A DNA stretch of 64,000 bases from Amoebophrya sp. A120 (Eukaryota; Protista; Dinoflagellata): the NCBI GenBank assembly GCA_905178155.1, contig CAJINV010000003.1, positions 9,741,979 to 9,805,978 on the forward strand. The letters are read 5' to 3'. The notes beneath the pieces are model-generated. The model made no database searches and was not told where the DNA came from. It saw nothing but the letters and a program-made list of their open reading frames with translations. The translations under genes were made by a program, and so were the position numbers. Each line of letters begins with the position of its first letter. Position 1 is the stretch's first letter. Positions 13,101 to 61,757 of the stretch are shown here, piece after piece.

Positions 13101-14097
13101 GACCGAGTGGATTTATACCAATTGAACCCAGCAGGAGTTCGTTTTTATTTAAACGCGCTGCCCCGCTCTAACTGGGCACACGCATAGCTGTTGCAGTGCT
13201 CGAAATAACAATAAGTTTGAAGTTCCCATATTTGTACGCTTTCGAGCTTGAAGTTGCATTTGACGTCCTCAAATTTGCACGCTTTCGCGTCTATTTTACA
13301 TGGCGGCAGAGAAGCGACACTGAGCCCGCACCTGGCAGCGCTGGCAGGAGCATAAACAGCACTTGATCATCTTCTATTTTCATTTACACGATACCGCGAG
13401 AGCGCAGCTCTGATCAAGCCGGTGCAACCCGGTTGCGACTCTGATGCCCGCAATGCGTGAAGTAAACTGGTCACGTCATACAAAAGGGCAGTTTCTCGCT
13501 TAGGGTCCACACGGGGCAGATCGCTGTCGGCTTTTGTTTTTCTATTTCTTTTTGCACCTGCAGCATTACATCACATTTTTCACCTCGATATGTCGGTAAT
13601 CTTCTTGCCAAGTCCCTTGATGTCCGCATTCAACTGCAGGCACAATTCGTGATTGCCTTCGGACTGTTGCAGCGTGTCCGACACTTTTGTTTGGTAATTG
13701 TGCAACTCCTTAGCCAGCTCCTTGGACTTCTTAATCAATCGACGCTCGTTCTCGTGTGCCTTCCGGAGAGCTGCGTGAAGGTTTTCGAACTCTTCCTTAT
13801 ATTGGGTTAAGCAAGCCAATTATGACCAGTAAGCAGGTTCGCAGCATCTATCTTTGCAGATGCAATGGTTGTTATTGCGCGAATGCATAGCTGTAGTGCG
13901 TTCTCAGGCACCGTCAGGCTGCAGCAGACCTGATAGATACACAATCCAGCACTCCACTACATATGTAGATGCGCGACCACGTTGCTGTCTGATATCGTTT
14001 CGCGAACTTCGTTCAAAGTCATCAAAGCGTCCTTGGCCATGGCCTCGAACAGCTTGGCACTGTTGTCGCCATGTTCTTTCCACTCATCCATGGACAT
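1189..14097 (-). CDS. CFAP58: CFAP58/CCDC147-like ciliary coiled-coil protein, multi-exon, 3' part probably continues beyond the window start
   Basis: Approximate exons: 13966-14097 (MSMDEW..LFEAMAKDALMTLNEV), 13584-13810 (QYKEEFENLHAALRKAHENERRLIKKSKEL), 12981-13023, 12554-12564, 11056-11125 (YEKQIADLL), 7642-7682, about 6560-6730 (LQKELQQREVDRAKEE), about 3950-4130, about 2103-2335, 1528-1562, 1189-1315. The peptides follow the CFAP58 N-terminal half colinearly as I recall it (e.g. FRIEYERLHAVMKKSYDNEKRLMAKCREL). Introns 13024-13583 and 1316-1527 are GT-AG and in frame; several other junctions are non-canonical or unresolved. Confidence 0.75.
5702..6332. repeat. About 150-bp diverged direct repeat (5702-5853, 6183-6332) in a CFAP58 intron
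   Basis: AACCCTTTGCTCGCGTCT...TTTAGCGGTGA present in both copies. Confidence 0.9.
11129..12553 (-). mobile_element. Insert with a TAA direct repeat forming a putative CFAP58 intron
   Basis: Inverted repeat CCTCGAGGAAGC / CATCAAGGAGGC (9/12); TAA on both sides; in-frame join INN-TEKV. Confidence 0.45.
12006..12107. repeat. About 34-35-bp tandem repeat, 3 copies
   Basis: AATCCCGGCGGTATTGGCCTTGTGGCA units. Confidence 0.9.
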
Positions 14098-16936: not shown

Positions 16937-17650
16937 ATCATCATCATCATCATCATCATCATTTATCCTGCACTTGGGGGGGACGTTGTAGAGCTTTCCG
17001 CTCTCACACTCAACCCATTGCGCACATTAGCACTAACATCCGTTCTAGTGTCAGCCTGTTGTGCTTGTCAGATCATATCCTCTGTCGCTCGGCAGGTTTT
17101 TACTACTCCCCGAAGCAACTCTGCTCAGGGGCACTCGTTTTCAGACATATTTTCGGCGTCCAGTAACGAGCCCACTGTACTTCCGACGTGGACATCTGCG
17201 GACTGCTTGCCACGCAAATGTCTGCAATCACTCAGGAGATGGACTGGAACTACGAGGCTTCGATCCAAAGCGGGATCTCAGCATCCGGGTAGTCGTAGTC
17301 CTTGTGCGCCGGGGGACGACAATTGTTCCTTTGATCTGTTGATATGGAAGGATATCTTTCTGTTGAGTGCCGCCGATGACTATCCAGAGGAAAAACGTCC
17401 GCAACCCCAAGCTGTCATGCAAATCTGCATGCCCAGATCATCTGTAATGCGGCTCCACATGACGGGCATTTTCTAATCCTGTTTGGTGATCTGCAGTGCG
17501 CGAATCAGGGTGACAGAGTGGATTTGTGGTGCGTCTGGGCTACCTCAGCAGCACGACTACAGTGTGTCCCCAAACTTGTCATGCGCGACAATCACTACTT
17601 GCGGATTTGTCTAGCAGATTCCCCATGTTGACTATGGGGTTGGGGTGGGA
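16937..17650 (-). pseudogene. Possible 3' remnant of a non-LTR retrotransposon with an (ATG)n tail
   Basis: Interrupted frames containing RKCPSCG and VHLLSDCRHLR (CCHC-like), ending directly in about 8 ATG repeats. Confidence 0.35.
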
Positions 17651-19402
17651 GCCTTTTTGCACAGGATAATGACGACACAGAGTTCATGCCTGAGCCGAGT
17701 GCACTACTTTTTGCGCGGCGCCACAAGACGAAGCGAAGCGAGCGGGCGAGGCTGCTCTTCCGGCCTATATACTAGTGAACTTTTGCGACGGGGAGAACAC
17801 CTACCCAAACTGCTAGTGCTCTCCTGCGAAACGATCCTGTCTCACTTTGCCTGTGTACTGCTTGCTTTCCTGTGATGAATGTCAGCGCACTTGACACGTG
17901 CCGAGTTAGTTTGGCGCCCCTCCCTTCCGTTCCACCCCTTTCAGCAATCACCGAGCGGCTGCCGGTGCCCGGTGGTTCTGGCACTTTGCATTACGCGTGT
18001 AGTAGCGGCTCAATTCTCCTGAGCGCTGGCTTTGCTACTCTGAGGGCTCGCGGTTCTGTGCAGGTGAAAGCCAGAAGAATGAGCAACATTGCCCGGCAGC
18101 AATGTCCACGATGGATTCGGGACCAATTAGAAGTGCTCTGGGTTGGTGTCCGGAGAAACGTCGGCGCAAACGCTGCTGGCCAGAAAACGAGCGGGAAGTG
18201 CCTGGGTGGGTAGATTGATACCATACGCAGGAGACGCAGCACCGCGCCACAGTAAATAGCCGCCGAAGGGGCGGCCGGTTTTTCCTCCTCACCCTGCGAA
18301 GGAGGAAGGGGGTTGATGTCTGTGTTGCCAAAAATACAGCGCTATGAGCGCGGGTGGTGAGGTTTATTGGCTCTGTTTCAGCAGAAAATCCCGGCCGCCA
18401 CCATCTAAAAGCGAAAAAGATTAGAGATCCGAGCCCGTGGCGGCAGGTCTTCTCTCCGGCGCAACACAGGGGCCGCGGAGCTCCTCCCGAATATGTGAGA
18501 GCTCAGCGTAGTGCTTGTCCCGGGAGGGCACTGCGACATTGACTGACCTCGTGCGGCACATAAGATTTGCCCCACTTGGTTCCTCTGCGCAAGCCGAAGT
18601 AGAAGCAGTATGCGGCGCCTGTCGTGGAAGAAACGCAACGCGCGCGATCGCGAAGCCTGGTGGCGAGATGTTTACCTGTCTCGCGTGCTGCGCCGCTTGT
18701 CATCCTCGTCGACTCGGCCCTCGGGTAGCCACTTGTCCACGTCTTGGCGGCTTTCTGCAGTTTCCGCATGCCGCTCCGACTGTAGGTTTAAAAGCAAGCC
18801 CGGCCCGCGTTTTTGCTTGGATGGTCCGAAGCCTCCGGCGGGAAACCGTTCTCACCGGAAAGGCACAAGCGTCCACGATGGTGAGCGCACATCGGAGAAT
18901 ATCGACCGACCAGCCACCTCAGCCTAGTCTCACAGGCTCGATAGACTTCTACTGCATGGCCATACATTTTTCAGTGACGAGGGTGCGTGTTTCCAAGTAA
19001 ATGGTCAAGAGCAAGAGCCTGTCAAAGCGTCGTTCCTATTGAAGCAAACAGATGCACTCGAGTCGTGGGGCTTCCCGGGCTGCCATGAAGTCCCCTGGTT
19101 TTTGCTTGATTGCTCTGCCTCTCTCGTCGAGAGCTCCGCACGCACGAAGTTGACGCAGCTAGTTGCAACCATTCGCATCGTTTTCGCAGTGCAAGTTTTC
19201 AGCCCCTCTCTGCAGTTGCTTACTTGTTCTTTTTTAGGTCGCTTGCGGTTGATTGCTGCAAACAACAAGCGAGCAGTGAAACTACTGCAGCGCTGGTCTT
19301 TTACGGGTGTCAGCACAAAGAACGACCCATCGGCGCTTGGTTTTTTGTAGTGTTCCACCTCACAATGACAATGGTTCTAGGAATTCCAACCGCTGGCATA
19401 GC

Positions 19403-19447
19403 TCACCCCAGGTGGACCGTACCATTAGGAAACAGCCCCATCACCTC
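19403..19447 (-). CDS. UBXN11: UBXN11-like terminal exon (EVMGLFPNGTVHLG-stop)
   Basis: Completes the UBX C-terminal TLxxxGLxPN motif; in frame after removing 19448-24517. Confidence 0.8.
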   Translation of the reverse strand, partial: EVMGLFPNGTVHLG

Positions 19448-19450
19448 CAG

Positions 19451-22400
19451 TATAGAAGCGTCAGGTGGGAAATCGTTCACATAACGGAGGCGGTGTGTAA
19501 TACACAAAAGCGCCAAGCGTTTTCGTTTTAGCCATCAGTCTTCTATCTTTGCAGCACACCTTCGAAGCAACGCACCTCAAGGAAGGGCTAAGCGACCTCG
19601 GCGGCCACCAGCTTATTCGCGCTTTACTGTTTCGACACATGGAAGGACCTCGACCACGCTCAATATTCGGCGATCCCTTCCAGAACGACAGCCCGGGCAT
19701 GGGCCGCAAAGATCCTCGCTTGCTGTGAGCGCGGGCCAGTTCCCTTTCTGCAGTTGCGACTTCAGCCCACGACCGGGGTCACGGGGTGAGAGATGGCAGC
19801 GGCCCCCTCCGATGCGGCTCGCTATAGGTAAGAGGCAGCCAGGGCGCCGCCATACCTAGGCGCACACCCCGACGCGTACCCGGTCACAGCGCTGGGCTGA
19901 CACCAGACCCGCGGCAAGCCCAAACACTACAGCGGCACTAATGACGACGCCGGCGCTGTGCCCGTTGGCGGTCTGCTGCGCGCCCCCCCTACCTGCGCCC
20001 AACCTGAACAAGACCGGGCGGGGACCCGGCGAGAAGTCACGGCTCCTGTAGGTTCGCGGGCGGTTCCTGCAGGTGCCAGAGGCCAAGCGGGGCGCGCGCG
20101 CTTTCAACGTGCGGCCGCCATCGCCAAGCGCTAGCTTTATTGCGGGCCTGGGCTTGACTCAGATTCCCCCGCCTTTTGGCAACAGGTCCCGGGCCTCATA
20201 CGTTCCTTGTTTTCTAGGCCGGTCGAAAGGGATCGCGCGGCCCCCGCCGGCGCCCCAAAGTTCAAAAAGTTTCCCCCTCCAATCCGAGAGAGAGGCGCGC
20301 CCCGATTGTGCAGCCCATCCGGCTTCTTCACAAGAGCGGAGCGGACCGCGGCACTTCCGGGAAGAATGCCAACAGGGGTGGGCGTTTTGCGTAGCGCATG
20401 ACGGTGGCCAGGAACGCTCTCGCGCGTATCGTGATGGTGGCCGCGCCTATTCGTAGGCCGGCCGCGATTGCAAGGAAGCTCTTGCACACGGGCGCGGCGG
20501 TAGAGCAGAAGTAACAGTCAGAGTTCAAACACAAATACTGGAAAAATTCAAGAAAAAAGCTCCAAGCTAATACATAAGAAACGACCCAGGCGGCGCGCGC
20601 CGCGTGGGAAAAAATAGCGCGCAAACCTTTCGGAGCACCTCTTAGATTGGACGCGGAGATCTACGCCAAGCACAAGCTCGATGCTTGGCCTTCAAGAATC
20701 TCCACACTCCACTAAAGCGGCTGCCTTTAGCCCCTCTCGGCGGAGCTACATGCGGAAAAAGCCGGCAAAAAACCTCCTTCAAGAGCCAGAGCCGGATGGG
20801 AAAAGCTAGAAAGGCTGAGACGCCTCCCGCCTTACAAAACCGCAAGGCTGAGACGCCTCCCGCCTTACAAAGCCGCAACCTCCCGCCTTGGCAACTTTTC
20901 GGAGCGCCAGATCCAGAAAAAGCCGAAGCGCCCTCTGCGCTTTTGCTTGCAAAAGTGCTCAGCTTTCTTGTGTTTTGAGAACAAGAGAAAACTGGTAGAA
21001 AGCGGGCCCCCCGAGAAGTTTTCGGATCTGCAGGAAGACAATCTCGCTGCTTACAAAAATCCCCTCCACCTTCAGCCTCTTTTCGAAGGCCGGCCAGACC
21101 CGGAAAAGAAAAGCCAGCGGCCGGCCTCAAAGAAAGTGAACACCTTCTGGCTTTTCAGACGAGCCAGATCTGGTGGGCAGAGCTAGATCCGGCCAGAGTC
21201 CAAAAGTTCGCTTTTTCGTTGCAAAGGCCGCTACTTTTGGCTTGTCCTAAATTTGCCAGAAGCAGCCAAAACGTGGCCGCTTTTGGTCGTGCTGATACGT
21301 CGTGGCCTGGCGCAACCTTCAGAAAACCTTCAGAAGGCTTTTTGACCTTGATGATGATGATTAGTGCGAGCGGGGCTCGGCGCAGCTCCCTCCTCCGGCG
21401 CGCGGCAGGAATAGCCTGCCCTAATACCCTAGTGGTCACGGCGTTGACCGAGGCCAGGACTTTTCGTTATTCGGTTGTGGAACGCCCTCACTTTCGATCG
21501 TTGGGCCTTGCTTCATTCGGGGGCCGGCATGTTTCACACATTCCGAAGAACGGGGCGGAACTACCAGCACACGCACAGGATACGGCGCTTGTTTGTCCTA
21601 TTCTTTGGCCTGGAGGTCAAGGATCGACCTCGCGATCACACTTACGGCTCACAGTACTAAACGCTCTGACCTCCGACCCGTACTGATTGCGCAGCAATCA
21701 CGCTTGAGTGGACTCGAACCCCTCGGCTCGTTGAATGAAGTTCCACCAGTCAGGAGCTACACCCTGGCGAGCTGACCAAGGCAAAGCTCATCCCAACCTT
21801 TTGAATCCGGCGCAGTGGATCCTTTCCCTACTAGGTTTTTTATAGTGAGACCAGGGCACGCCCCCTGGAGACGGCGCGACTCACTTTTTGCAAACCTTCT
21901 CGCACTAGCGCCCATCTAGATGCGGCGGGCCTTGCTCCATTGATGGCGTGCAAAAAATTCGGATCGAACGAAGGCGCAGGCGCTCTCTAGGTAGGTAGTC
22001 CGAAGGTAGGCAGTCTTAAGGTCGTGCCTTTCTCTCAGTTCTTTTTTGTGTTTTCTTTTTCTGTGTCTTCAGAGCTGCTGTCTTTCAACAGCGAGCCCTT
22101 TCTTGGTCGGTTAGCTGGTTGCTAGCCGTTTGAAGACGTGCCTACTGCTGTTGCTAGGCGCAGGCTGTTGCGTGTGGCCGCTGGCGCATGGGAAGGCGGG
22201 CGGACCTGAGAGGTCAAGGCAAGCAAGCAAAGTCTTCAGACACGTTGGCCGGCCCCAAGACGTTTGCCGCACATCGCGGCGCCGCCATAAATCGACAGGC
22301 TGCTTTTTTTTTCCGCTCTAGAGACCGGCTCTTTCGCTCGTTTTACGAACAGCCTACCTAGAGCAAAGCACTCTGGTCGGCCACTGGACCTGCGCCGGCT

Positions 22401-24515
22401 GGCTAGTGGCCGACTGCCTTTCACGGCTGTCGGCGGGCTTTTTCCTTGTCCGGCAAGCTTCTGGGTCTCTGCTGAAGTCCTTCTTTTTCTTTTCGTTCTT
22501 ACTGTCGCAGGTCGCCGTCGAACTGTCCATGTTTGCTATGGTTGGAGTCCGCAACCCGGCGAGAGACTTGGCGGCTGCCCCTGCCACGCCTTGGGCTCTT
22601 CCTGCCTCACCTCCTGTCGCCTGCCTCGCTCTGTTTTACGCCGCGCGCCTCGGCCTCTTTGCCAGGTTGCTGTCGTCCTCGCCCCGGCCTCGCAGCTGCG
22701 CTGCGTTGCCCCCCTTGGAAGTCGCGCCGCTGCTGTGCTCTGCTGCCTTTTCTCCCTTTTTCTCTTTTCCCGGTTCCGGGGGGGGGACGCCTTTTCCTGC
22801 CTTTCCCGTCAATGCGTTTGCCACTACTGCAGCAAGGGCCCCCTCGTCTACGGCGTCGCGCCCCTCATCGGTCCCGCGAAAGCCTTGCCCCTGTTGCTGT
22901 TGGCTTTCTTGGCTCGCGGGCCTGTCTTGCGTTGCCCGCGCACCTGCTTCACCAGTAGCCCCCTGCTGCTCAGCTTCGTCCAGGCCTAGTTTTTCTAGCA
23001 GCCATCTCGACCGTTCTCCGCGTGTCATTTCCGGCCATTCCTTCACCGGTGGGAAGTCATAGAGATTAACTATCCCCGAAGTCGTACACTGGCCAAGCAC
23101 CACGCGAGTCGTGATTTTCTGCGCTGCCGTACCGCAACCCTGTTTCTAACGCCGGGGCGTCGCTTGCTACCTTCCGCCAAGACTCCGCGCTGTCACCGTA
23201 GAGGCAATTCTTTTGCACTACGTGCCCAAGCACCTCCATGGTCTCGATCGCTTCTGTCAGGCTTAGCACCACGCCCGCACCCCTACGCAGCGGACCCCGC
23301 GGCTTTTGGTGCAGTTTCTTATAGTCCTCCAACCTGTCTGAAGCATATCGCTTGGCCTGAGTGCCATGCCATCACGGCCTCCACCGCAGCGCGTGCACTG
23401 CTGCAATATGCCAGGACCTGCTGCTCTTGTTCTCTATCTTTCTTCTACTTCCAAGTGCGCCGCCTTGATCTTTGGTTGCAGCACTGCAACCATTTTTGTG
23501 CCGTTGGGTGGAAATCGCCCATACATAGATCCGAGCGGCCCCAACCTCGTCCGTAGAAAGTACTGAGGTCGTCAGCTCGTCCTTGCTTTTGCGCCCGGGC
23601 TAAAGCGCTCCGAGCGGTCCGGGATGATTCCCGCTAGCCGAAGATCACAGGAGTCGGGTAGTCGGGTCATTGCGCCTTCTGCTAATGCTGTCACTAGCGC
23701 CGCGTCCGCCGTTTGGCGCGTTCGCCGTGCCTCATGGTTCCGCCTCGTTCAACCCCGCGAGGCCAGTGCCCAAGATTCGCAGCGGGAAAGCTGCCCACTT
23801 CAGCACGCCTCCCATGTCAGTCAGCAGATTCCTTTGCGACAGAGCGCGGAGTATTTTGATGCCCAGAAGGTTCAAAAATAACGCGAGCCCTTTTGCATGT
23901 TTTTTTGTGAAAAGTACGCACAGTTTTCTTTTATTCCGCCTTCAGAAGGTTTTGGGACTTTGAACCTCAGAAGGGCAAAAGAAAAAATCTTCAGGAAGGT
24001 CAAAAACGAGGCGCATAAAAACCTTCCGAAGCTTTGCAGTCAGTCAGTCGCTCACGTCTAAGAGTAGGGCCAACGCGAGCAGGTTCTGCGTCTTTGGCCA
24101 CAGTTCGGCTCTTTGCAGGCTGTTCACGAAGAGGGGACGCCAAACTCATAAAGAAAACTGTGGCTACGGTAAAGCTCTAGAACACACAAAAGAAGACTGT
24201 GGCTAAAGTTTTGCACATCGATCAAAGAGCTTCTGAAGGTTATTGAACACCTACTGAAGGTCCAAACTCGACAAAATTTTCTAAAGGTTTGAAAAAAAAA
24301 AAAAATTTCCGAAACAGGACCTGTATCCGTTTCAGTTTTGTGTCTTTTTCAAAGTGCCCACTTCTGCACCTTCAGAAGGTTTTTCGATCCTTCTGAAGGT
24401 TCTTCTGAAGAATTTTCTTCTGAAGGTTGTAGTGATTTTTTCCCGTATAGTCCTTCTATTGAATTATGCATATAGTTCCTACTTCGTCGTCGATTTTCCT
24501 CCAAACACTCCCTTA
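19451..24515 (-). mobile_element. 5-kb introner-like element forming non-canonical UBXN11 intron 4
   Basis: 25-bp imperfect inverted repeat (TAAGGGAGTGTTTGGAGGAAAATCG vs TATAGAAGCGTCAGGTGGGAAATCG, 17/25 identical); flanking 5-mers TTAGA and CTGGA; removal restores the UBX C-terminus. Confidence 0.8.
23066..23590 (-). pseudogene. Decayed tyrosine recombinase-like ORF inside intron 4
   Basis: GRADDL (box I-like R, about 23580) and, in another frame, GPLRRGAGVVLSLTEAIETMEVLGHVVQKNCLY (box II-like xxLRRGA...LGH...Y). Contains stops and frameshifts, and the His of HxxR is missing. Confidence 0.5.
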
Positions 24516-24517
24516 TC

Positions 24518-25030
24518 TAAAGTGGCTTTGGTGTCGGCAAACAAACGTGTCGGTGGAGGGAAGGCACACTTCAGTACCGAGGAAGGGTCCTCGTGCGACA
24601 AGTGAAGCTTCGCTTTCGCCGCCTGGTAGAGCTCAGCCACGGTCGCTTGCTTCGGCAGAGACACGCGACAAGCTCCGTTACGGTGCTTCACTAAAATACT
24701 GCAAAACGAGGCTCCAAGTTCCGCCTCGCCGCCGGATGGGCCGGCTTGCGTCATGCAGTCGTCTCGCCTCGCCCTCGCACTGCAAGTGTGCTCCACGGCT
24801 TTCAACGGACTGGCTCTGACGGGAAGCGTAGCTCCAGTAGTTTTGCAACCAGGAGTTTGCTCCTCGACCATTGTCCGCGTCACCAATCTCCGGGCCGTCT
24901 GCGCACTGTTACTCCGCAGCTCGGCGGGATTTGCGGCTGGCAGACGTACGGCGTCGCGCTCATTCTTAGAAAGGAGCCGCTCTTCCATCTCTTGCCGGAT
25001 CGGAACAATCTGCCCGTTCGCCAGAATAAC
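24518..25030 (-). CDS. UBXN11: UBXN11-like exon 4 (most of the UBX domain)
   Basis: Canonical acceptor ctctctcag|GTT; VILANGQIVPIR...QATVAELYQ...LKCAFPPPTRLFADTKATL (UBX FP motif); 171 codons. Confidence 0.85.
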
Positions 25031-26876
25031 CTGAGAGAGAACGAGATGTGCTGATGTTGATTATTGCCCCTCTGCCTCTGGATCAATCTGACGACCGAAC
25101 ACGAACGCAATAAAGTGTGCTCTTGCTTTCCGTCTTTGTAATTGCTCAACTCGCTTTTGCAGCACTTGCCGGGAGAGAAAAAATGAAAATCGCGCACGCG
25201 CGTGCGCATATAGACGCACGCCAACTACACCAGACGATAAATATCAAGAGTCAGAAGCTCCTCGTCAGTCAGGCAACGGAGGGCCAAGACTGCAAAGCCG
25301 AAAAGAACAAGGCAAGTGGCCCAAATGGCTGAGGGCGGCCGAAAGCCAGGCCCCGGGGGGACGGCGGCGGCTGCCTCTCACAAATACCAAGCGGGGGCAC
25401 TGGGTGCGACCAAACTCCCCGAGGCGCAGAACCCCGGCAGCTGTTTGTTTTCAAAAAACAAGCGGCCGGCCGCGGCAGCTCCCTGCAGCCCAGCGGGCCC
25501 CGAGCGCGGCGCCCGCCCGAGGGCGCCGGCCGCGGCTGCTGCAACGCGCGGAGACCCGGGCGCCCTCCCACCGCGTTCCCGACTGCGCGTCGCCCTTTGA
25601 CTTTTTTTTTGTTTTCCGAATCGGCACGCTGAACCTCCTCCGCGCCCTTTTTGGCAAACTTGTCCCACTAGTAAGGCCACCGGCTTTTTTCTACAGACGC
25701 GCTCGCTTTCGAACCCAAAAAATTATGGGCCCGCGCTCCAAAAAGAAACTCAAGCCATTTGATTTTTGGCCCAGATTTTTACTTTTTGTCATGAGGCAAC
25801 TGTGCTCCGTTTTCTCTTTTTTGTCGTTGGGGCTGAAGAACTTTACGCGCCCGCTAAAAGTTTCGAACTGGGTCTAAATTTGCATATGCGATCGGGCTTC
25901 GCGGATCTGGGAGTGGGACTGCGACTGTCTGTGCCTGGGTTCGTAATGGGACATCTCAAGGGCGAGCAGTTAGGAGGTCTTATCTCGGGGAGCTTCTAGA
26001 TCTCGAGTCTATTGCCTACAATTTGCGATAGTTTTGCCCAGCTAACACGCATAGCAACTCCAATACTTTTCGAAAAAGATCGCGCCAAAAACGCATGGAA
26101 GAGTGCGCCATCCTCTCCCATGATTACTCTCTACGCCCTTGGTCCCCCTCCATTCCTCTTCTTCCCCCCTTGGCAACTCGTTTCTTTGCCCTTTCCTTGC
26201 GTGACATAAGTTGGCGCCTTGTAAAATCAAAATAGGAACCCTAAATCCTAAAAACCCTCTAAACCCTTCCGACGCTGGTGGCGGAGCCGGGACGGAAACA
26301 GGATGGAGTAGGAGCGGAAGGGAAGAAGGATCGGAGGAAAAGCGCAGGAACCGCCACTGATCAGAGAGAGCGCGCATAAACGCATGGCGTGTACCTGAGC
26401 AGAGTTGCGCGAAATAAGTTGGCGCTTTGTAAAAAAGACAGAAAACCTGTGCGGCCAACAATCAAAATGCGACAAGACAGCAACGAGACCGAAGCAATCG
26501 ACGAATAAACACCGGAGGCGAGTCAGCATAGTGCAGCGCTCCTATATCCTAAAAGTAGCTCCACCAGCGCAGCGAAAAAGAAGGCGCATATTGATAAACC
26601 ACGCACAGACTTTGCCTCCCCCCGCGCGTTAGAGGCGGCGCGCGTTTAGAATAATGCGCTGGCGCTTGAGCGAAGCAACACAAACGCGAAAGACAGCAGC
26701 TTACATACTTAGAGCAAGCTCCTTCGGCACTGCATTAGCTGCCAAGGCGGGCCAGAGACTGCAGTCAAAGAAAAACGAAAACGCAAAAACTAAACTTAAA
26801 GTGTAAAGCAACAAGCAGACAGAGCCAATAAAGTCTATAGATGGGCAGCGTACTGGAGCAGTCGAGTTCGTCTTAC

Positions 26877-27028
26877 CTGCTTCGGAAGGAGGTCCAGAAA
26901 CTTTTCCTGCACTGCCCGAGAGGCAAGCCGAATCTCGTGGCTGTGATAGTCTTCGTTCAGCCGGTCGACCACCTGGAGACACACCCCATTGGGATAGTCG
27001 GACTTCAACAGATAGGGAAAATATCCGT
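26877..27028 (-). CDS. UBXN11: UBXN11-like exon 3 (SEP domain end)
   Basis: DGYFPYLLKSDYPNGVCLQVVDR...EKFLDLLPKQ, followed by a canonical CAG|GTAAGA donor at 26876. Confidence 0.85.
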
Positions 27029-27031
27029 CCA

Positions 27032-29362
27032 TATCGGGTGGAAAAGGAAGAGCCACCCCCGCCGCATATAGGGGTCCCGGGCGAATGTGGGCGCAACCTC
27101 TAAAGAAATGGCTCGCCTCACGGAGGTGCTCCTGCTCACTCGCACTAACGCAGGGCCGCGATAGCTACGCCCTGGCGGTCGGGCAGCGTGTCGAAGCTGC
27201 TCGCCCCTTGATCCAGTGCGGTGCGCCCGCGCTTCGCTATGCTCCCTATGCATCGCCGATTCCCGGGCCTCCACAAGAAGACTCGTCGAGCCTACCTGGC
27301 CACGGTACAGAGGCAAAGCCAAACGAAGCGCACAGAGATAAGACACGCGGGCGCGCTGCAAATTGGCAGCAATGGATGCCGCAAACGAAAAGGATGGCGG
27401 GCGGCCCCGAGCGTGGATGAACCGGGGCCGCCCAAATCTTTCGCGGGCGCCCTCACCTCGAAAGCGGCAAGCCACCGGGGCCACTGAGGCGGGCGCCCGC
27501 GCCGGGTGGCCATGGCATGAAAAACAACACGCGGGCCCCTTCGCCAATCAACGGCGAAGCGCGCGGGGCTTCTAGTTTTCCGCCCTGCGCCCGCGGCAGC
27601 TGTTGCTAAGTAAGAAAGGACGGAGGCAGGCGGCACGCTACGGAAGTGCTGCCGCGGGCGCCCGCGGCACTGGCCAGCGCTGAACACTGCTGGGCCCGCG
27701 GCGGCGCGTCTACCTCTAGCCGGCACCCCTCGGCCTACCTTCCTCCGGCTTCCGGCGGTCCGGTTTTTTGCTTTCAGGCTTCCGGCCTGGTGGCTTTCGG
27801 TTTTCCAGATTTCGCCGCGCCCCCGGCTTCCGGGCTTCGGTGCCCCGGCTTCCGGCTTTCTGGCTTTTTGCTTTCCGGACCGCTGCACGCTGGCTTTCGA
27901 CCGGCGCCCCGGTTTTCGGCCCGGTGTTCAGGTTGTCGCCCCTCATGCCTTCGGCCGGCCTTCAGATTTTCGGCGCCCAGCGCTTTTCGGCCCCCCAGGC
28001 TTCTTCTTGCGGCCTCCAGGTCTCCGGCGTTCAGGTTTTTACGCGCCGCGTTCAGGTTTCGGGCTTCCGGCATTCGCGCAGGCCTTCGGCCCCCGGCAAA
28101 GGTTTTCGGCTTTGGGGCCTCGCTCCAACCTTCATTCTCCGGCCTCCGCCTCGGCTCCAAGGTTTCGGGGTCTAGGCTTAGGCCCGCCGGCTTCCAAATC
28201 TACGGCGGCCGCTTTTACGTCGGCGCCCAGGATTCCTGCTTTGAGTTTCCCGGCAGCCACCTTCGCGCGCATGGGGCAAAATGGCACGGCCCGGGCAAGA
28301 AACTTGCTCCCCCACTGCTAATATTCAGGCGGGCCCCAGGTTGTGCGCCCGGAATCACAACCACAACACCGCCCAAGGGGGCCGCGCTGCGCCCTGGTGC
28401 TTTCCTTTTGTTGTCGCGGCGCCCTGGGCATCTGAGTGACACAGAGACGTGCTATACCAGTGGCGGGGCCTGGGTGGGGCCGCTCCCAGGAGATATTTTT
28501 CTGGCTACCCAAATGCCCATCGGCGTGAACGGTGGGGACGCGGGGGGCCAGCGCTGCCTTGAGTGACACAGGAGAGGGGGCGCGGAAAAGAGGGGGCGCG
28601 GGCACCCTCGGGGCCCGGCGGCGCGGCGCTTGCCCGTACTTGTGCGGGCGCGCGGGGCTACCCTTCTTTCATGCCATGGCACGCGCGGGCTGGCTGCTGC
28701 CAATCGCTTGAAGCGCAGTCGGGAACAAGAGGAGGAGGCGCGCGCGGGCAACCGCGCCGTCCCGGGCCCGGGCTGGCTTTGCCCCGGTGGCCTGCTGCTT
28801 GCACGGGGGCCGAGAACGGCAAAGACGGCTCCTGCCAGCCTGTGCGCCCCCAGGCTTTCGCGCACAACGCAAAAACCCGGCAGCTGGCTTCGATTTCTGG
28901 CGAACTCCTCTCCTTTTCTTGCTACCCAAGGCCAAGAAGCCCAGCGCGTCGCCTGCTCCCTCCCCACTTTGGAGTCGGCCGGCTTTTGTGGTGCGCCCTC
29001 CATTCGAATGTGGGCCAAGATGATAGATGCCCGCTCCGCGCGAGCTAGCTGCTTCCTTCCTGCTGGCCCCGTTTTGGCGCCCGTTTTTGGGCGCTCCAAA
29101 TTAGCCGCGCGCTAAAACCCAATGAAAGAAATGGAGACAGGTTGCTTTGCTGGCAACAGTTCAGCACCCACGCCGCCTAGACATGACAGGTTTTACCTCT
29201 CAGGGATGACAGCACCACGGACCGCTTAAACATTGCCGGCCGTTTTGTGCCCGGGTGCCAAAGAAGCCGCCGGGCCTGTTTGTCGCATCGGATCACGCGG
29301 CACAAGCCCCGCTTTGAGTTCCGCAATATCGGTCGGGGGTGCCTTGCGTTATCTCTCTGATA
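27032..29362 (-). mobile_element. Introner-like insert forming non-canonical UBXN11 intron 2
   Basis: TATC...GATA termini with a perfect 5-bp direct repeat TGGAC (29363-29367, 27027-27031); removal gives VLD|GYFP. Confidence 0.85.
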
Positions 29363-29364
29363 GT

Positions 29365-29401
29365 CCAGCACGTCACGCAAGACCCGCTGCGCCGTCGAGT
29401 T
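29365..29401 (-). CDS. UBXN11: UBXN11-like exon 2 (37-nt micro-exon, NSTAQRVLRDVL)
   Basis: Supplies the missing SEP segment between PFYKYE and DGYFP; in frame on both sides. Confidence 0.8.
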
Positions 29402-29404
29402 CTT

Positions 29405-31569
29405 TATCACACAGAACACAAACGCCCTACCTTGCTTTTTGATCGCGGCCCCATCTCATGGCCGACTGTCGCGCATCGTGTTGCACGTTTGAAGTTGCGC
29501 ACTACTGTTGCGCGCTGGGAGTTAACGGCCCGGGGCGCTCACCCGGCTCATACACTACGACCAGCGCGCGCGTTTTTGCGCGCGCTTTTGTTGGGGAACA
29601 CCACACCGCCAAAGGTTCAAAATGCTGCAGCTTTGCACAGCTAGCAAAATCCCAAACACAAACACAAACGGCAGGGCTTGAGCTCCCTCGCTCTGCCGAA
29701 CCTGGAAGGGGCAAAGGAAAGGGACCAAGCTCATCGGCTCCACTCTCTTCAGCATCATCATGGCCATAGGTCTAGCGCTAAGGCTCTGGATCTGAGTCAT
29801 TTGGATCAGAGTACTGGGCTGCGACGCTAAGGCATTGAAGTCGCTGAAGGGCCTGCAGGTCGTATCTCGTCGCCATTTTTAGCTAATGCAGACGCTGGCG
29901 CCCGTTATAGAATTGGCGCACAACCTGCCGCCCTGCGCCGAGCACTCGGCCGGCATGGATGCGTGGCAGGCCCACTGCCCCCTACTTTTTGACATTTCTG
30001 GCCGCGGGGGATTTGGGTGAGCTTGCGCGCGCGACCGAGTAGAAATACCGTGGCGGCGGCGGCGCGCGCAATGACAAGAAAACCGCTACCCTGCTCCGCC
30101 CCGCTCGTTCGGGCTGCGGGGCCAGCAGGAGAAACAGGCCGCGCCGCGATTTTTGGAGGGGCGGGCGCCGCCATGGTACTGCGGCGGCTGATTGCGCACG
30201 CCCCGGGGCTTGTCGGGTGCGTCAACTGGAAGAACGGAAATTGGATCCAGGTCGTGTTTTATCTCGGCAAACACCCCCCATGCCGTCGCCGCCAACCCCC
30301 ACCGAAGCCAAGCACTTCAGCCGCGGCCTCAAGCTGAAGCCGGTGCAAATGGGCAAGCCGAGGGAAAATGTACAGCCAATGTTGGCGAAGGTGGCGCCAG
30401 TCAGGGGCAACGCCAAGAAGAAGGGCGGCACGAAGGGAGCGGGCAATAGCGGGAAAAACGGAAACGAAGGCAAACGAAATGGCGCGACGCCTCTACTGAT
30501 GTCAATCTGCCAGCGCACGAATCTCACCCACACTCCATCCAGCCGCGCGACAAAGGCAACCAGCAAGCCAGACAGCCCTGCGCGTTTCTCCGTGGGAGCA
30601 CATGTTTGAAGAGTCTGCATACTGGGCCGGGGGACTGAAAGAAGCGCACGGGGTGAACGAGCCGCATAGCGGAGTAATGCAGCACACTCACGCGCTGCCT
30701 GGCACCACTCTAGCCAGGCGCGCAGGCTGCTTGACGCCTGCAGCCAAGAGCCGCGACAGGGCTTCTGCGTGGCTTACGTGCAACAAACGCACGGCAGACA
30801 GGCGGCACGCAGCAGCCTGCCGCATGCCGCACGCAGCCACCGCCGGAAGGCTACTTCTGATTGCACATATGCAACAGGCGTGCAAATCAAATCAAATCAA
30901 ACCCGCCGTCCGGTAGGAATGTGAACCACTTGCCCCCTCCTCTGAATCACTCCCCTATCCCTTTGAACCACCGCCCGATCTGGGTCACTACTTAGCATCT
31001 CACGCATCACCTCCCCACCTCCCCCAGTCGGAAATTGAGCGAGCTGGTACCGAAAGGGCCGGCGCGCTGAGTACCCGGCCTGGCCCGCCGGGTGGCTCCG
31101 GCTGGTTCTCCGGCACCGAAATCCTACCTGGCCTGGCATGCACCAAAACAAATCCTACCTGGCGACACGGTCCGGCTCGCCGCCTCTGGAACTCAGGCCG
31201 GAAGGGCACGCGCTGGGGCATATGAAGAAACTTCGGCAAGCCAGACGGACCTTCCAAACACGCCGCCCGGCTGAAGTTATCGGGCGTAGCGGTGCGGCCG
31301 GGCCTGGCAGTTCCGGCGGATCACGGCGCGGCAGGCTTGCCCCGTCGGGCGAGACCTCATTTCCTTGTCGTTTTCATTTTCTGGAGAGCCTGCCTCGTCG
31401 CTTTATTCCTCAGCATTTTGCTTCTTACTTTGTAGTTTGTGATCTAGCGGAATAGTTGAACTTTTCTACACATCTTCACAGGCCTGGCGTACGCGGATAG
31501 TAGTTATGCTTTGCAAGCAATGATGTGGAATATTGTAAAGCTGGTATGGATGTGCCATTCTGTGTGATA
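29405..31569 (-). mobile_element. Introner-like insert forming non-canonical UBXN11 intron 1 (intron about 29402-31571)
   Basis: Perfect 12-bp terminal inverted repeat TATCACACAGAA at 29405-29416 and 31558-31569; flanking 5-mers GAGCG and AAGAA. Nearby GT-AG or GC-AG choices give the wrong frame. Confidence 0.85.
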
Positions 31570-31571
31570 CG

Positions 31572-33674
31572 CTCATACTTGTAAAAAGGGTGACCCTCTA
31601 GCCGCAGCCCGTCTTGAAAAAAAATGAGCTGCGCCAGCCTTTCGGACTCGAACTGGTGTAGCCTGGTGCCGCCCTGCGGTCCTACCTGAACAATTTTGGC
31701 CTCCCTCTCCACGAGACCGCTCAACTCCGTGACTTTGCGCTGGATCAGCCCGATATCTACGGTCGGCGCCACTGTCCGTGCGTCTGTTTCGTCTTGTCTA
31801 CGAGAGGGACTAGAGCTAACCGCCGGCGCTTCTCTTCCTCGCTCAGGTGGCCGACCCGGCATGGCGTTGACCGAAGGAGAGACCTTTAGCGCCTTGCCCT
31901 CTGCTTCTTGCGATCTTTCAGTTTCAGGGACCGTTGCTATTGTCGGGGACGTGTTCGAGGCCTCCTGTAGTCGAGATCTCTGCTCCGCGGGAAGCGGTGG
32001 CGCGGCCATGACCTTGGCTCTTATGCTCTTACCGACGCGATGGTGAGCCTCCTCTTCCAACACGCATCTATCGACGCCGTCCTCTGGAGAGCCTCCAACC
32101 CAGGTGAGGCCGTAGTCGGCCAAGAACCGTTTGATATCCTGGAGCTCTTTGCGCAACTCGGCATTTTCGGACACGACCTCGTAGAGCGAGACGAAGTTGT
32201 CTATTTGTGCAAGCGGTTCGTTCGCTTTTTGCAGCTGCATCCGCACTGCCCGCCTTTCGTGAGCGCTATGAGACGGGTCGGCTTGAGTTGTTTGTAGTCG
32301 CTGAGCAATCGAGGTCGCGCCGAGCGAAGATCCCCTTGGCGCAGCCTCCGGACGAACTGAGCTGGAACTATGAACACTGGGGGCGAGGCGTTCAAGAAGC
32401 AGCTTGTCGCTACTTGTACTTTTTGGGCTAGGCACAGGAGCAAAATGAACCGATGCGGGTCCGCCGGCGAAGGCTACAGCGGCGGTGCGATCCAATACTT
32501 TAGGACTTGCGTATACTGCATTTGGATGGGACGACGACGACACCCGCGGTAGTGCGGTGCAATGACGCGGCTCCGCGAATGAACCTCCTTGGTGCTGAGC
32601 GCGAGTAGCGTACGCCATCGGGATGCGCTGCCAGAGTTCCTCCTTCTCCAGTGCGGGGCTTCGCTCCGATCCGAGCCGACTGCAGAGGTCCCCTGATGAT
32701 GCTCTCGGAGGCAGATTTCCCTCGCCTGGGTCCGGCCCCCTCTCGCTGGTCCTTGTTGACGCACGCACCGACGAGGCCTGTCGCAGCGCGAATCTTGGCG
32801 ACGTTTTCCACGAAGAGAGTACTGTAGGACTGCTGACGCCGACAGCCGCAGTGGAGGTCCCAGCGCCGGCGGTGCTTCTGCTTTTCTTGTAATCTGTTCG
32901 AATAAAAATTTCAAAGCCTGACGCGCTATCGGTGGTTAAGCTTTCCTCGTCCTCGCGATGAATGTGAAGATTTGGGGCTCCCTGTCCCTCGTCTAAAGCA
33001 CCTGCTATGGAGAGTTCTGGTAGTTGTTTCGTGGCGAAGCTCTTTTCAGCGCTATGGAGGCCAGCAGCCGCGTCCGTCGCAGTCCGAAGTGGCAATCGAG
33101 AGTGCAGAAGACTGACGCGACCCGCGATGTTCACTTGATTCTTCACGGCAAGATTCGTGCTAAAAGGTATGGCTCTCTCGAGCAGCGGTCGGGTAACCTG
33201 TTCGCGGCCCCCGAGCACACAGCTATCCACAACGCTTGCGAGCGCCCGCAGCTGCGAGCTCGTATTGGAGCAGCCATCTGCGAGGCGCGGCTTCGGGACG
33301 TCCTCGGGAGATGGGACACATCCAGATGAAGAAGGAAAGGACGCAGTATCGTGGAGTAGTGGCACCCGAGCGCCTCTTGGCGCTGGTGACAAGGAACTCA
33401 TCGCGGACAAAGTGGCTTTCTCTCGAGTTGAGCCGTGCGGCGAAAGCGCGCGATCACGGGACAGAATACAGTGAGACGGTTGGTCGATGTGGTCGCGAGC
33501 CTGTTCGTTGCTATTTTTACTCAGTTTCTCCCGCCAGTGAGGACCCGCAGGTACATTTCGCTGTCCATTGACATTATCCCGCACGACACCAAGACAGACG
33601 CCTTGCAACAAACGCCCTTCATGTGAATTCGGGAAATAGTTGCTGCTCTCACCCGGACCGGCGACCGAGGACAT
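31572..33674 (-). CDS. UBXN11: UBXN11-like protein, exon 1 (701 codons; low-complexity N-terminus, coiled coil, start of SEP domain)
   Basis: Long ORF containing ELRKELQDIKRFLADYGLTWVG and LIFFQDGLRLEGHPFYKYE, which resemble the UBXN11 coiled-coil and SEP start. The ORF tail beyond 31572 is intron readthrough. Confidence 0.85.
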
Positions 33675-38996: not shown

Positions 38997-41996
38997 CATC
39001 GTGTGTAGAAACGTACCAGCCCCATAGTCAAGATTGCATTTGCAACGAACCCTGCTACATAAATCCAGAACAGAGGGCGTCCGCAGACAGCATGGCACAG
39101 GGCAGGCCGCCCCTCTTGGTGTGCATAGCCCCACAATCAACTGGCGCATCATCATCGTCAGGCGCGAGCGGCTCAGTACGCTTTTGATGGCGCACACCGA
39201 AAAATAAGGCACATCGTCGCCGTCTCGACTATGCGCGCAGATGCTGCGGCGCAGCGGCACAATACCCAGCAGCCTGCACCTTCCGCCACTATGCTCTCCC
39301 GCGATCATGGACACAGCCACGCAAGGGAGATAACTTGCGCGCAGCACAATGGCGCCGGATTCGAAGGAATGCCCCAAAGCGCCCCCACTGCTCCCAATAT
39401 GGTCGGGGCGGCGGAGCATTCACGGTAGGAGCGCGTCCCTTGGGGAGTACATATACACACAGACGCCACACAACACGCACGCACACAAGTGAGCCAGTAC
39501 ACGAAGGGCGCCCGGGTCTCCACAACAGACAAAAAAAAGTAGCGGGGCAGGCAAATGAAGCACGACGAAAGGCAGGGAAGGTATGCGCGTCCCGCAGAAT
39601 GCGAGGGCGACAACGATCGACTGCGCTGCGTGATGGTAGAAACGTGGCGCGCGCGCGCCTGTTCGAAGAAGCGCGCTGCTCGGAAGCGCGCTTGGGGCGA
39701 GACATGTCCCGGGGCACAGGGCGAAAAGGCGCACCGGGGGCGAGGGAGCGGCATGGCACTTGTGCCACTTCCAGCGGGCCGCTGCCCTCCAGATGGGCAC
39801 TCGTTTCCTGGCTGCCGGTTGGGGTGCACAAAGCCCCGGGGCTACCCAGCAGGGATAATTGTTGCGCCGTATTGCCAGTGGGAGCAATGAAAAACGCGGG
39901 CGCAGAGGCATTGTCGGCACCGCCCCGAACGGGGGTCCCGCGAAGTCCCGGGGGCCCCTTGCTCGGCGGCTGGGCCGCCTAGACAGCGTCTCGGAAAGGA
40001 CAAGAAGGGCCAGGCGCCTCCGTGCCCTGCCAAAAAGATATAAGCCGCGGGGTCTTGGGATTACTGGCTCACATGCAAAGCGCCAGACGCAGACGGGCGA
40101 CGGCCAAAAGGTAAAACCAGTGGTAGATGCCAAAACCAACGGCAAGCAAGGAAGGGGGTGCGACTGAGGCAAAGGGAAGGCCATTCGTTTGCTTTCTCTG
40201 CAGAAAGCACAACCAGGAACCACGAAGAAGTTTAAACGGGCCCGCTTCCAGTTGTTGGCTAGTTTGCAGAAAGAAAGGGGGCGCTTCGCTCCATCTCCCT
40301 CGCCGCGGTTGCGTCGTTCGGGCATGCGCCTCCGGACTTGCGCCGCGCGCTGCTCCTTCGGAAGGGCCGTCCCAGGCCAGGCTGGCCGGCCCGGCGCTAG
40401 CAGGCCAAGGCCGGCTCCCCCGGTGGAGCGCTCTCGCACGCACCTCCCCGCGCTTCGGGCGATGAACAGAGAACAGGGCGCCACCCTCCCCTCTAGGCAA
40501 GGAAAGAAAAACGACCGCGCGCGCGACTGACGTAGCTACCGAGCTGGCCGCCCAACTGCGTCTGCTTTGCCGCGCGGGCCTGCCTACTCCCCCGGCAAAG
40601 GAAGTGCGGCCAAGCGCCATCCAAGCCCGGCCCCGCGCGTGCCGGCAAGCGTGCGTGCCCCCCCCCCGCCCCGAGGTTGCAGCAAGCCCCGAATCAAGTG
40701 AGTCCGCCGGCTCGCCCCAGGATGGAAGGAAACCCAGCGGGCCTGCCAGGGACAAAACGCGGCCCGGCGCCAGGGGGGCACCCCGCCCGGCCCCCGGCCG
40801 GCTGCTGTCGTCTTCTAAACATCAAGGGCGCGGGGCTGTTCCCCCGAGAAATTCTGCGCGCGGGGGTAGTTGAAAACCACCCGGCCCGGGCCGTGGGGGT
40901 GTAGCAGGCAGCAAGGCCCGTCCGGCCTGGCCCCGGGGCCAAGTCCGCCCGGCCCTTCGAAGGCCGGGCGGGAGGCCACCCCTCCGGCTCCGGCCCAGAC
41001 GAATGCCGCTATGGCAGAGCGTTCGGAAGGGCCGAAACCCTTCCGGCCGAAGACCAGCGCCAAGTTCGTCCGGCCGGTCCGACGCCCTAGCGAGGGAGCC
41101 AGAGGCCAGCCGGCCCAAGCAAAGGAGGCAAAGCCAACAAAGGTTGTCCGCCCCCGCACCCGGCCCCGCCACCGGCCCATCGAACCCAGCCGATGGGGCG
41201 CCCAAAGCTAAGGTCGTCCGGCCCGACGGACCCCGGGCCCCGCTCGGCCTAGGAACGCAGCCCGACCACTGCTGAAAGAGGGGCAGGGGAGTCCGAGAAG
41301 GGAAGGGCCCGAAGAAACGGCCCCCCCCGCCGGGCCAAGCCCAAACCAAGGGCTGTCCGGCCGATCTCGAAACCAAGTCCGTCCGGCCCTGCCGGGTTGA
41401 AAGTGAAAGTCCTGCCAACCCGCCACAAGCCCACAATAAAAGTAACACGAACGGCCGGCCGGCCCAAGCCCAACCAACAAAAGCCGAACGCGGCCGTCCG
41501 GCCAGGGCCCAAGTCCGTGCCAGCCAAGGCCAGCTCGGCGGGCCCGGGACCAAGCTGGCCCCGCCGCGCGGGCGCAAAGCCAAGGCCGGCCCGCCGGAAT
41601 CGTCTCGGGCCGCTGCAAATCCGGCGCGCAACTCTTATCGCGGACCGCGGCACTTTCTTCAACACAAGAAAGCGCTGGCGGACTTCCTGCAGCTTTTCCT
41701 GTCGTCCTTCGGTATCGACTCTTACTGTTTTTGGTTTATCTCAACAAGATTTGCACGGATTATACTTGATTAACAACTCTGTCGCGCACACGCGGAGCTA
41801 CGGAAGGCTGAAAATCAAAATAGCATGACAAGGACAAACACAAATGATTAAAGATGGCAAATCCAGTCTGCTCCTCGTGGGGCTACGAATGGGGCACAGT
41901 CTGCACCGCGACTGCTGGAGCTGGACATGCAAATTATTTGCATGAGAAGTTACCAAGATCGTGCGGGTACGTTTTTTACATAAGGTAACGACGATA
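38997..41996 (-). mobile_element. 3.0-kb introner-like insert forming a non-canonical glycosyltransferase intron
   Basis: Gapped inverted repeat TATCGT..TGTAAAAAACGTACC vs CATCGT.TGTAGAAACGTACC; flanking 5-mers CAGCC and GTCGC; in-frame join. Confidence 0.75.
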
Positions 41997-60300: not shown

Positions 60301-61757
60301 GTGAGTGACGTTTGAGTCTCTTCATATTAGTCCCTCAATGAATTATGAGGTAGCGCCACAGGTTTCCAGACCCAGAAGCATTTGCAATGCATACGTCCCG
60401 TCGTTCGACAACGACGCTACTTTCATGCCCATGGTCGGTAGCAGTGTAAGAGTCGAGTTAGATTGCGGCCCAACCGAAACGTACATGCTTCCGGCACCAG
60501 CTCCAGTCGACAGCGCACGCTGAGAGGGAGTAACACTCGCCAATTTTCGCACTGCCCGGCGGACGCCTGGATTGTCGACGCTATCACTCTCCGTCGGATT
60601 CAGCCAGACGATACACATTTCCGTTGGCATCGCGGGAATCGGAAAACAGATTTTCGACCCGGCCACCATACCGACGTCCTTGATTAGATTCATACCCTGC
60701 GCGGTCCCAAATGTCGTGGCCGATTCCAAGTCCGAGCGGAAATTCGCCGGATTCAACTGGGAGGGCAAGCCCGTGATAGTGGTAACGTGGAGCATATCCG
60801 GGAGGGTACCAGACAACTGCATCTTCGCACGAGAAATCCAGGTCTCCGCATTGTATTCCCACGTTCCGAGAAGCGTCGTCCGTCTTGGGAGGAAAAGTGC
60901 CCGCACCGACTGTCTCGGGTCGTTTGTGTACGGCACTCCTTTTGCCTTTCCGCGTGGCGGGAGTAGTGATTGGATGCTTGTACTTGTTCACGAATGTAGT
61001 AAACTGGCATAGGAATCCTAACCCATGCGTCTAACTATTCCGCATGGTAGATGTCTGCTTTCCGCTAACACCCATAGATATCGCGACATATTGGATTCGA
61101 CAAAAGTTTCTGGACGTGCCTGTCCCTACTTTCCTTGTATTTATGCTCGACACAAGCAGATTTGTGGCCACGCATGGAGCTTTACGAATAGCCTTCCTGT
61201 GACAACCAGGGGGGCGTGAGATTTTGCGTCAACATAGTCTTGTACTTGAACACTGTAGAGAAGATGGAAGCATCTTCAGTCTGGTCGTCCCGCTGCGTCG
61301 TCGTGAGCTTCCGAAAGTAAATTTTGTTTCGGACGTACTCTGTCATTTGCAGACTCCGCAACCTCGCGGCGCTCTCTTGTGAACTCCCCAGCATGAGGTA
61401 AGAACTCGGCCCGAGGTAGAAGCACTTCACAAACTGCGACAGGGTCTCCGGATTCCCAACGTCGATCATGGAGCCGATCGACGGGGTCGTAGCTCCTGAT
61501 GCCATGCACGGGTGCTGGGTCGGGGCGTTGAGCTGCCTCTGGGACCAGCCTATTGCGGATTGGGGAAGACGCCGCACGCATCGAGGCTGGCGGCACGGAG
61601 GGCAGATCGCGTTTGGATCACCTGCTGGAACGGTGTATGTATTTGCCGCGCACCCGCCGTCTGTGCTTCCATCAGCGGCCAATACGGTGTCGTTCAGCAG
61701 GTAGGACTGGATCCCTTGTTTGATTAATAGAATTAGAATAGCAATAGTCGTACACAT
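54307..61757 (-). CDS. Multi-exon type I membrane / surface protein
   Basis: Exons about 61236-61757 (signal-like MCTTIAILILLI, Cys-containing region), about 60396-60985, about 58870-59061 (T/S-rich stalk and TM VLAVVLAACGLGI), 54652-54835 (SLMCYLVRKK, basic stop-transfer) and 54307-54416. The GT-AG intron 54417-54651 is in frame. Confidence 0.65.
59065..60393 (-). mobile_element. Introner-like non-canonical intron in the membrane-protein gene
   Basis: TATGCA...TGCACA termini, 5-mers GGACG and GTCTG, in-frame join NDG(M/L)SVTALS; internal GCAAAGCGGC-type minisatellite at 59470-59745. Confidence 0.55.

Follow-up and report, generated by a model that had tools for sequence, protein, structure and literature searches.

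How does a cell find introns that carry none of the normal splice signals? The question is posed by Amoebophrya, in which more than 60% of introns are removed without GT-AG ends or a detectable U1, according to Farhat et al. 2021 (PMC7789003). We addressed it in a stretch of 64,000 nucleotides of Amoebophrya sp. A120 (contig CAJINV010000003.1, positions 9,741,979 to 9,805,978; hereafter the window), which holds eight annotated non-canonical introns, J1-J8 (356-5070 nt), each bordered by a left and a right inverted arm and, outside these, by an upstream and a downstream 5-mer. We found that a single cut, which lies 1 nt ahead of the left arm and 4 nt past the right one (the 1/4 rule, N/TAT…ATA-NNNN/ with slashes marking the cuts), is common to all eight, and this rule is likely how the cell finds these introns. 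The class, its TAT arms and its 5-bp repeats are already known for A120 (PMC7789003). Literature searches turned up no statement that the offset is fixed in Amoebophrya; Figs 3, S19 and S23 of PMC7789003 may show such a mode.

The junctions were obtained by mapping annotated A120 proteins letter for letter onto the window DNA, and two canonical introns served as controls. P0001, P0002 and P0005 are A120 gene models, P0003 is the AT5 orthologue of P0002, and P0004 also matched the window; the four window genes (P0001, P0002, P0004 and P0005) all lie on the minus strand. P0001, an Amoebophrya sp. A120 protein, was the sole match (100% identity) to a 50-residue exon adjoining the interval under study, and we take it to be UBXN11-like. 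Its SEP domain match (residues 683-744 on profile positions 1-63, E 1.4e-9) spans the J1 and J2 junctions. Five of the eight introns are 2.2-5.1 kb long. The A120 gene models were made from BLAT alignments of assembled transcripts, canonical tools having failed (PMC7789003 section 25), and so provide indirect transcript evidence for the junctions. The A120 non-canonical class is defined by junctions with at least three RNA-seq reads, and the junctions used here rest on transcript-based annotation.

In all eight introns the net deletion equals the insert plus 5 nt. The two 5-mers of an intron, upstream and downstream, agree at 25 of 40 positions in total versus 10.9 for non-cognate pairs (P-value = 0.0006), the repeat being perfect in two introns and matching at 2-3 of 5 positions in the other six, and identity one base outside the 5-mer is 0/8 on either side. 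Such a pattern would be expected of a 5-bp target duplication that has since decayed, and a duplication of this kind flanking each insert explains the net +5. Across the whole window the signal is weak: perfect 5-bp repeats stand beside strict motif arms in 3 of 423 pairs versus about 0.5 expected, there is no excess at 3- or 4-bp repeats, and with a relaxed motif the count (141 versus 108-122 at other offsets) is not taken as a signal. We regard the assignment of J1-J8 to the known class, with a net of +5, as very likely.

To locate the cut, every placement reproducing the annotated protein was enumerated for each junction. None of the allowed placements is GT-AG. The cut may fall only after base 4 of the 5-mer in J1, after bases 4-5 in J7, 2-4 in J8, and 2-5 in J4 and, within the range 0-5, in J5; J2, J3 and J6 allow any cut and carry no information on its position. 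Base 4 is the sole value common to all eight introns, and stays so without J1, the only junction with a unique cut (after base 4 of both 5-mers). We also scored 961 offset rules with the published A120 arm motif, TAT-N7-AAA (PMC7789003). The (1,4) rule ranks first (77/96), followed by (3,2) with 68, (2,3) with 66 and (0,5) with 62, while the best rule with a net other than 5 reaches 61 and the maximum over 40 random intron sets is 45. It ranks first in 9 of 9 jackknife drops, and the two canonical introns score 9/24.

Under the 1/4 rule, position +2 is T and position -5 is A in 8/8 introns, so that a T(+2)-A(-5) pair is present in each, and +3 is A in 7/8; position +1 is G, C or A. The donors are GT (four), CT (two) and AT (two), and the acceptors are GA (three), GG, TT, AC, CT and GC, with AG in 0/8. 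None of J1-J8 shows the U2-type combination of a GT or GC donor with an AG acceptor. An earlier interpretation of this DNA, made without database searches (the sequence-only reading), had proposed that there is no fixed donor dinucleotide; this holds for the varying base +1 but not for +2 and +3, and a fixed T at +2 with a free acceptor is the reverse of what it had guessed. In the RNA-seq motif table (PMC7789003 Table S4), 9/9 of the commonest A120 motifs are NT-NN with varied acceptors, and 9/9 of the commonest motifs of strain A25 are TT-NN, at 3-5% each. A25 arms start with TTA and two purines (PMC7789003). The TT-NN motifs are what one would expect were A25 introns to begin at this arm and to have an unrestricted acceptor, and we infer that the same register would then hold there.

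Between the two arms of an intron, 67 of 112 positions match, versus 47.4 for non-cognate arms (P-value = 0.0009; 0.0065 without J1), an excess that within the window looks alike for RNA pairing and for shared transposon ends. Of 41 registers compared, that of TAT comes first in five of the eight introns (one tied). Folding of whole introns predicts a terminal stem for J6 and for a further TAT-armed element at 17.7 kb of the window. J3, with a poor arm motif, forms a strong end-to-end duplex (z -3.8), and each arm of J8 matches the published motif at 6/6. Since the pairing register is poor in J4, J5 and J7, and a stem folds for J6 but not for J5 or J7, part of the arm signal is a sequence motif, and the complementarity may be inherited from transposon ends. 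Rfam returned 0 matches, and in two metagenome scans for relatives none of the 73 and 206 pattern matches was confirmed.

Several observations weigh against a fixed cut set by the arms. Only three junctions constrain the cut, and the probability of a shared value by chance is 0.08 for independent cuts at 0-5 and 0.31 at 2-5; moreover, the junctions come from annotation. According to the legend of Fig. 3 in PMC7789003, the position of the splice sites with respect to the hairpin varies, and Table S4 of that paper contains A120 motifs other than NT, such as GA-AG (1.5%) and GC-AG (1%). Arms pair poorly in J4, J5 and J7, where the TAT register ranks 10, 4 and 21 of 41, and whole-intron folding predicts no terminal stem for J5, J7 or a candidate intron at 13.9 kb. 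When each intron is left out of the motif in turn, J3 (ranks 11 and 8) and the right arm of J7 (rank 17) score poorly. For J4, two placements stand. The sequence-only reading had put this intron at 38997-41996; these ends differ from the P0002 annotation (41989..39030), which is 2960 nt, 45 nt shorter. The 38997/41996 ends form the better stem, with 6 contiguous bp, and leave 34 residues between two anchors, versus 49 for the annotated ends and 35 in the AT5 orthologue, and such protein spacing would favour 38997/41996.

One alternative is that introns differ in where the 5-bp repeat is cut and that the agreement at base 4 reflects chance or aligner placement. The chance values given above would permit this, as would the variable positions of 1-5 nt in the legends of Figs 3 and S23 (PMC7789003). 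Nevertheless, it appears unlikely: T stands at +2 in all nine top A120 motifs (PMC7789003), perfect repeats alone make positions look variable, and the alternatives at J1 can be told apart by sequence, which leaves a transcript alignment a single solution there. We consider a cut fixed at 1/4 to be probable. The sequence-only reading had suggested that splice sites are set by a fixed offset from the paired ends. That idea survives in corrected form: one offset fits 8/8 introns. Pairing of the ends is real on average but weak in three of the eight, so that a pure stem ruler is no more than possible.

If the cut is fixed at 1/4, spliceosomal chemistry would be rather more likely than not. In the scheme that we propose, an element with terminal inverted repeats (TIRs) would insert and duplicate 5 bp, as the anatomy of the introns suggests. 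Element plus 5 nt is then spliced out, as seen against the annotated proteins; with the 1/4 cut, four bases of the message come from the upstream copy and the fifth from the downstream one, so that any target sequence is restored. The 5' cut would set U at +2 and A at +3. Both canonical donors in the window are GTAAG, with the same U at +2 and A at +3, and on account of this shared register recognition of the donor by the catalytic core probably persists, with any base tolerated at +1. Paired arms, or a protein on each TAT-N7-AAA, may join the ends in place of U1 and AG scanning, with the 3' cut presumably counted four bases from the last A of the right arm. Later insertions would stretch introns to 2-5 kb and leave the cuts unmoved. 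In A120, U2, U4, U5, U6 and 83 of 89 spliceosomal proteins were found and U1 snRNA was not detected (PMC7789003), and a literature passage on Encephalitozoon deals with an apparent absence of U1 snRNA there as well. Strain Kv has canonical introns and U1. A spliceosome without U1 is favoured because A120 retains the other small nuclear RNAs and most proteins with no detected U1, while Kv has both canonical introns and U1. As a whole, the reading that TAT-armed introns of A120 derive from transposon insertions and are cut at 1/4 by a spliceosome predicted to work without U1 is one for and against which we see about equal grounds.

The 1/4 offset could also be served by other chemistry, namely a non-spliceosomal endonuclease and ligase making a staggered cut at the stem base, where +2 pairs with -5 and a 3' overhang of 3 nt would result; such a mechanism has been proposed for euglenids. 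The absence of AG, the unfixed +1 and the complementarity of cognate arms agree with it, and in euglenid introns the register of pairing is constant (+4,+5 with -7,-6; PMC3935182) and release is as full-length circles (PMC11282704). However, the cut follows the register of canonical donors (U+2, A+3), the stems of three of the eight introns are weak and so a poor fit to a structure-specific nuclease, and the A120 spliceosome is nearly complete (PMC7789003), which makes this explanation rather improbable.

Like J1-J8, euglenid nonconventional introns have paired ends, direct repeats at their junctions, plus free terminal dinucleotides (PMC3935182, PMC11282704), and their pairing register is fixed relative to the cuts (PMC3935182); noncanonical introns of hemistasiid diplonemids share the paired ends, direct repeats and free dinucleotides (PMC12621601). 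The euglenid motif differs, with CA and TG at +4,+5 and -7,-6 and Y/R borders in an unrelated lineage, whereas most of J1-J8 have TAT at +2 to +4 and ATA at -7 to -5. We suggest that J1-J8 may work like euglenid introns without being members of that class.

The sequence-only reading had instead favoured a cut after base 3 of the 5-mer, in which the acceptor would be TAnnG and the donor unrestricted. In the downstream 5-mer, base 3 is indeed G in 5/7 of the flank pairs that it quoted and in 5/8 annotated introns, which would yield NG acceptors, and this cut, the (2,3) rule above, is compatible with 6/8 junctions. It fails at 2/2 junctions for which it and the 1/4 cut predict different residues, giving N for the annotated H at J1 (31570) and L for P at J7 (60011); its offset score is 66 versus 77, and base 3 is also G in 4/8 upstream copies, so this G is partly inherited from the duplication. 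We rejected the rule on the wrong residues and hold it to be very improbable. Just as improbable is removal of the inserts at the DNA level by programmed excision, or an origin of the junctions as annotation artefacts: the TA-bounded inverted repeats do resemble DNA transposon ends and the junctions are known here from annotation, but 66,565 introns have RNA-seq support against the same assembly (PMC7789003) and the SEP domain is continuous across J1-J2.

Among known systems, the introner elements of Amoebophrya A120 and A25 (PMC7789003) are the closest, A120 being the same strain by protein identity. As in J1-J8, those introns have non-GT-AG ends and lie in genes with canonical introns. They carry inverted arms of 8-20 nt with a TAT start and an A-rich end, and direct repeats of 3-5 nt (5 bp in the legend of Fig. 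S19). As a set, J1-J8 bear such arms (motif 77/96, pairing P-value = 0.0009), weakly in J4, J5 and J7, and such border repeats (5-mer P-value = 0.0006 overall), in agreement with the statement of the sequence-only reading that non-canonical introns bounded by inverted and direct repeats are reported in Amoebophrya. The published analysis covered introns of 40-1000 nt, whereas J1-J8 include five of 2.2-5.1 kb, and its text describes a cut variable relative to the hairpin, whereas here a single 1/4 offset fits 8/8. Introners with TIRs and target site duplications elsewhere (PMC9860276, PMC12130899) and the introns of Fritillaria borealis (PMC11282704) likewise show a cut-and-paste signature, with splice sites inside the duplication and message length kept; they usually carry or co-opt GY and AG, whereas J1-J8 require neither. 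No transposase family was detected among 39 frames of at least 147 aa from J1-J4, J7, J8 and a long-TIR element at 47 kb, nor in other intronic frames, shorter or broken frames lying outside the scan.

The sequence-only reading had drawn its grammar from seven intervals, and all seven, with their flank pairs, are present as quoted on the minus strand. It had relied on the restoration of an open frame by deletion of the insert plus 5 bp. This is exact against P0001 for 29405-31569, 27032-29362 and 19451-24515, but not for 59065-60393, and 38997-41996 departs from the annotation as described. An open frame is weak evidence because, in 3000 trials, 36% (79 codons) or 72% (39 codons) of random deletions still read open through the junction; we therefore rejected frame restoration as evidence for an intron. 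By frame alone, deletions of +2, +5 and +8 are indistinguishable. At 59065-60393, taken for one intron, P0005 has two (60394..60039 and 60011..59061) flanking a 27-nt exon, which the proposed join skips in frame. There may be an isoform that skips this exon, or the introns may be nested in origin; the right arm of J7 agrees more with the left arm of J6 (7/14) than with that of its own intron (5/14). The interval 36640-37430 was rejected as an intron: the frame continues to a stop at 37389, the last 12 residues match the AT5 C-terminus at 11/12 positions, and the first 39 bases of the supposed intron encode the conserved C-terminus of P0002. For 47214-48946, the inverted arms are real (59 nt, 85%) but the interval lies within none of the retrieved coding sequences (CDS). 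J5 and J8 had not been listed.

Table 1. Introns, exons, genes and other elements of the window (window positions; open reading frame, ORF; untranslated region, UTR)
Feature	Coordinates	Strand	Description
P0001, host gene of J1-J3	19403..33674	-	949 aa; SEP domain and weak UBX-like domain
J1, non-canonical intron of P0001	29401..31570	-	2170 nt; GT...GA; arms 12/14 identical plus 2 G-U
Exon between J1 and J2	29364..29400	-	37 nt; SEP domain
J2, non-canonical intron of P0001	27028..29363	-	2336 nt; perfect 5-bp direct repeat; CT...GA under 1/4 rule, cut ambiguous
Canonical GT-AG intron of P0001	25031..26876	-	Negative control; without arms
J3, non-canonical intron of P0001	19447..24516	-	5070 nt; AT...GG under 1/4 rule
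J4, annotated non-canonical intron of P0002	39030..41989	-	2960 nt; GT...TT under 1/4 rule; weak arms
Coding 3' end of P0002	37389..37430	-	Conserved in AT5 orthologue P0003; no intron start
P0004	46861-45728	-	Single exon
J5, non-canonical intron of P0005	60879..61237	-	359 nt; absent from sequence-only reading
J6, non-canonical intron of P0005	60039..60394	-	356 nt; perfect 5-bp direct repeat; terminal stem in whole-intron fold
Micro-exon between J6 and J7 of P0005	60012..60038	-	27 nt; missed by sequence-only reading
J7, non-canonical intron of P0005	59061..60011	-	951 nt; arms pair poorly (5/14); cut restricted to base 4 or 5
J8, non-canonical intron of P0005	54848..58870	-	4023 nt; cut after base 2, 3 or 4 only
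Canonical GT-AG intron of P0005	54417..54651	-	Negative control
TAT-armed element	17377..17669	-	288 nt; arms 11/14; perfect 5-bp direct repeat; from motif scan; not listed in sequence-only reading
Candidate intron of CFAP58-like gene	13817..13995	-	Predicted, 179 nt; same grammar; 1/4 rule joins two stop-bounded frames
Long-TIR element	47214..48947	.	Terminal inverted repeats of 59 nt (85%); lacks a 5-bp duplication; outside all retrieved CDS

Other elements of the window touch on the same family. The TAT-armed element at 17.7 kb looks young, has a predicted terminal stem and no long ORF across it, and might represent either an intron in a UTR or an insertion outside any gene's message. The candidate at 13.9 kb lies in a CFAP58-like gene (window 1-14097, minus strand; E 3e-6 to solved CFAP58), for which no annotated protein was retrieved and whose upstream exon gave no solved-structure match; left arms that fit well at 13994 and 13590, together with one right arm (4135), suggest that this gene probably holds more introns of the same grammar. 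The arms of the long-TIR element contain an internal palindrome and spaced internal repeats, an end type unlike TAT-N7-AAA. Within the window, only internal parts of J8 among J1-J8 match elsewhere, at 67-73%: a diverged repeat is shared by intergenic 44544-45130 and 56064-56476 inside J8, which suggests that nested insertions lengthen introns. Finally, 36851-37359 and 51952-52478, about 15.1 kb apart, share two 100-nt segments at 75-86% and likely represent one non-coding repeat family.

A fixed 1/4 offset would make the removal of these introns a question testable with existing RNA-seq, would show where to seek lariats or circles, and would separate spliceosomal from nuclease models; gene finders could use it to call such introns. 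More tentatively, and with slightly less than even confidence, we suggest that both canonical signals have been replaced by one geometric code, with the 5' cut 1 base upstream (N-U-A) and the 3' cut 4 bases downstream, without AG or U1 and over distances of up to 5 kb. Every 5-bp-duplicating insertion of this family would then be a clean intron at any target, the code would explain the invasion by tens of thousands of introns, and what PMC7789003 describes as 'no clear splicing signature' would become a single rule.

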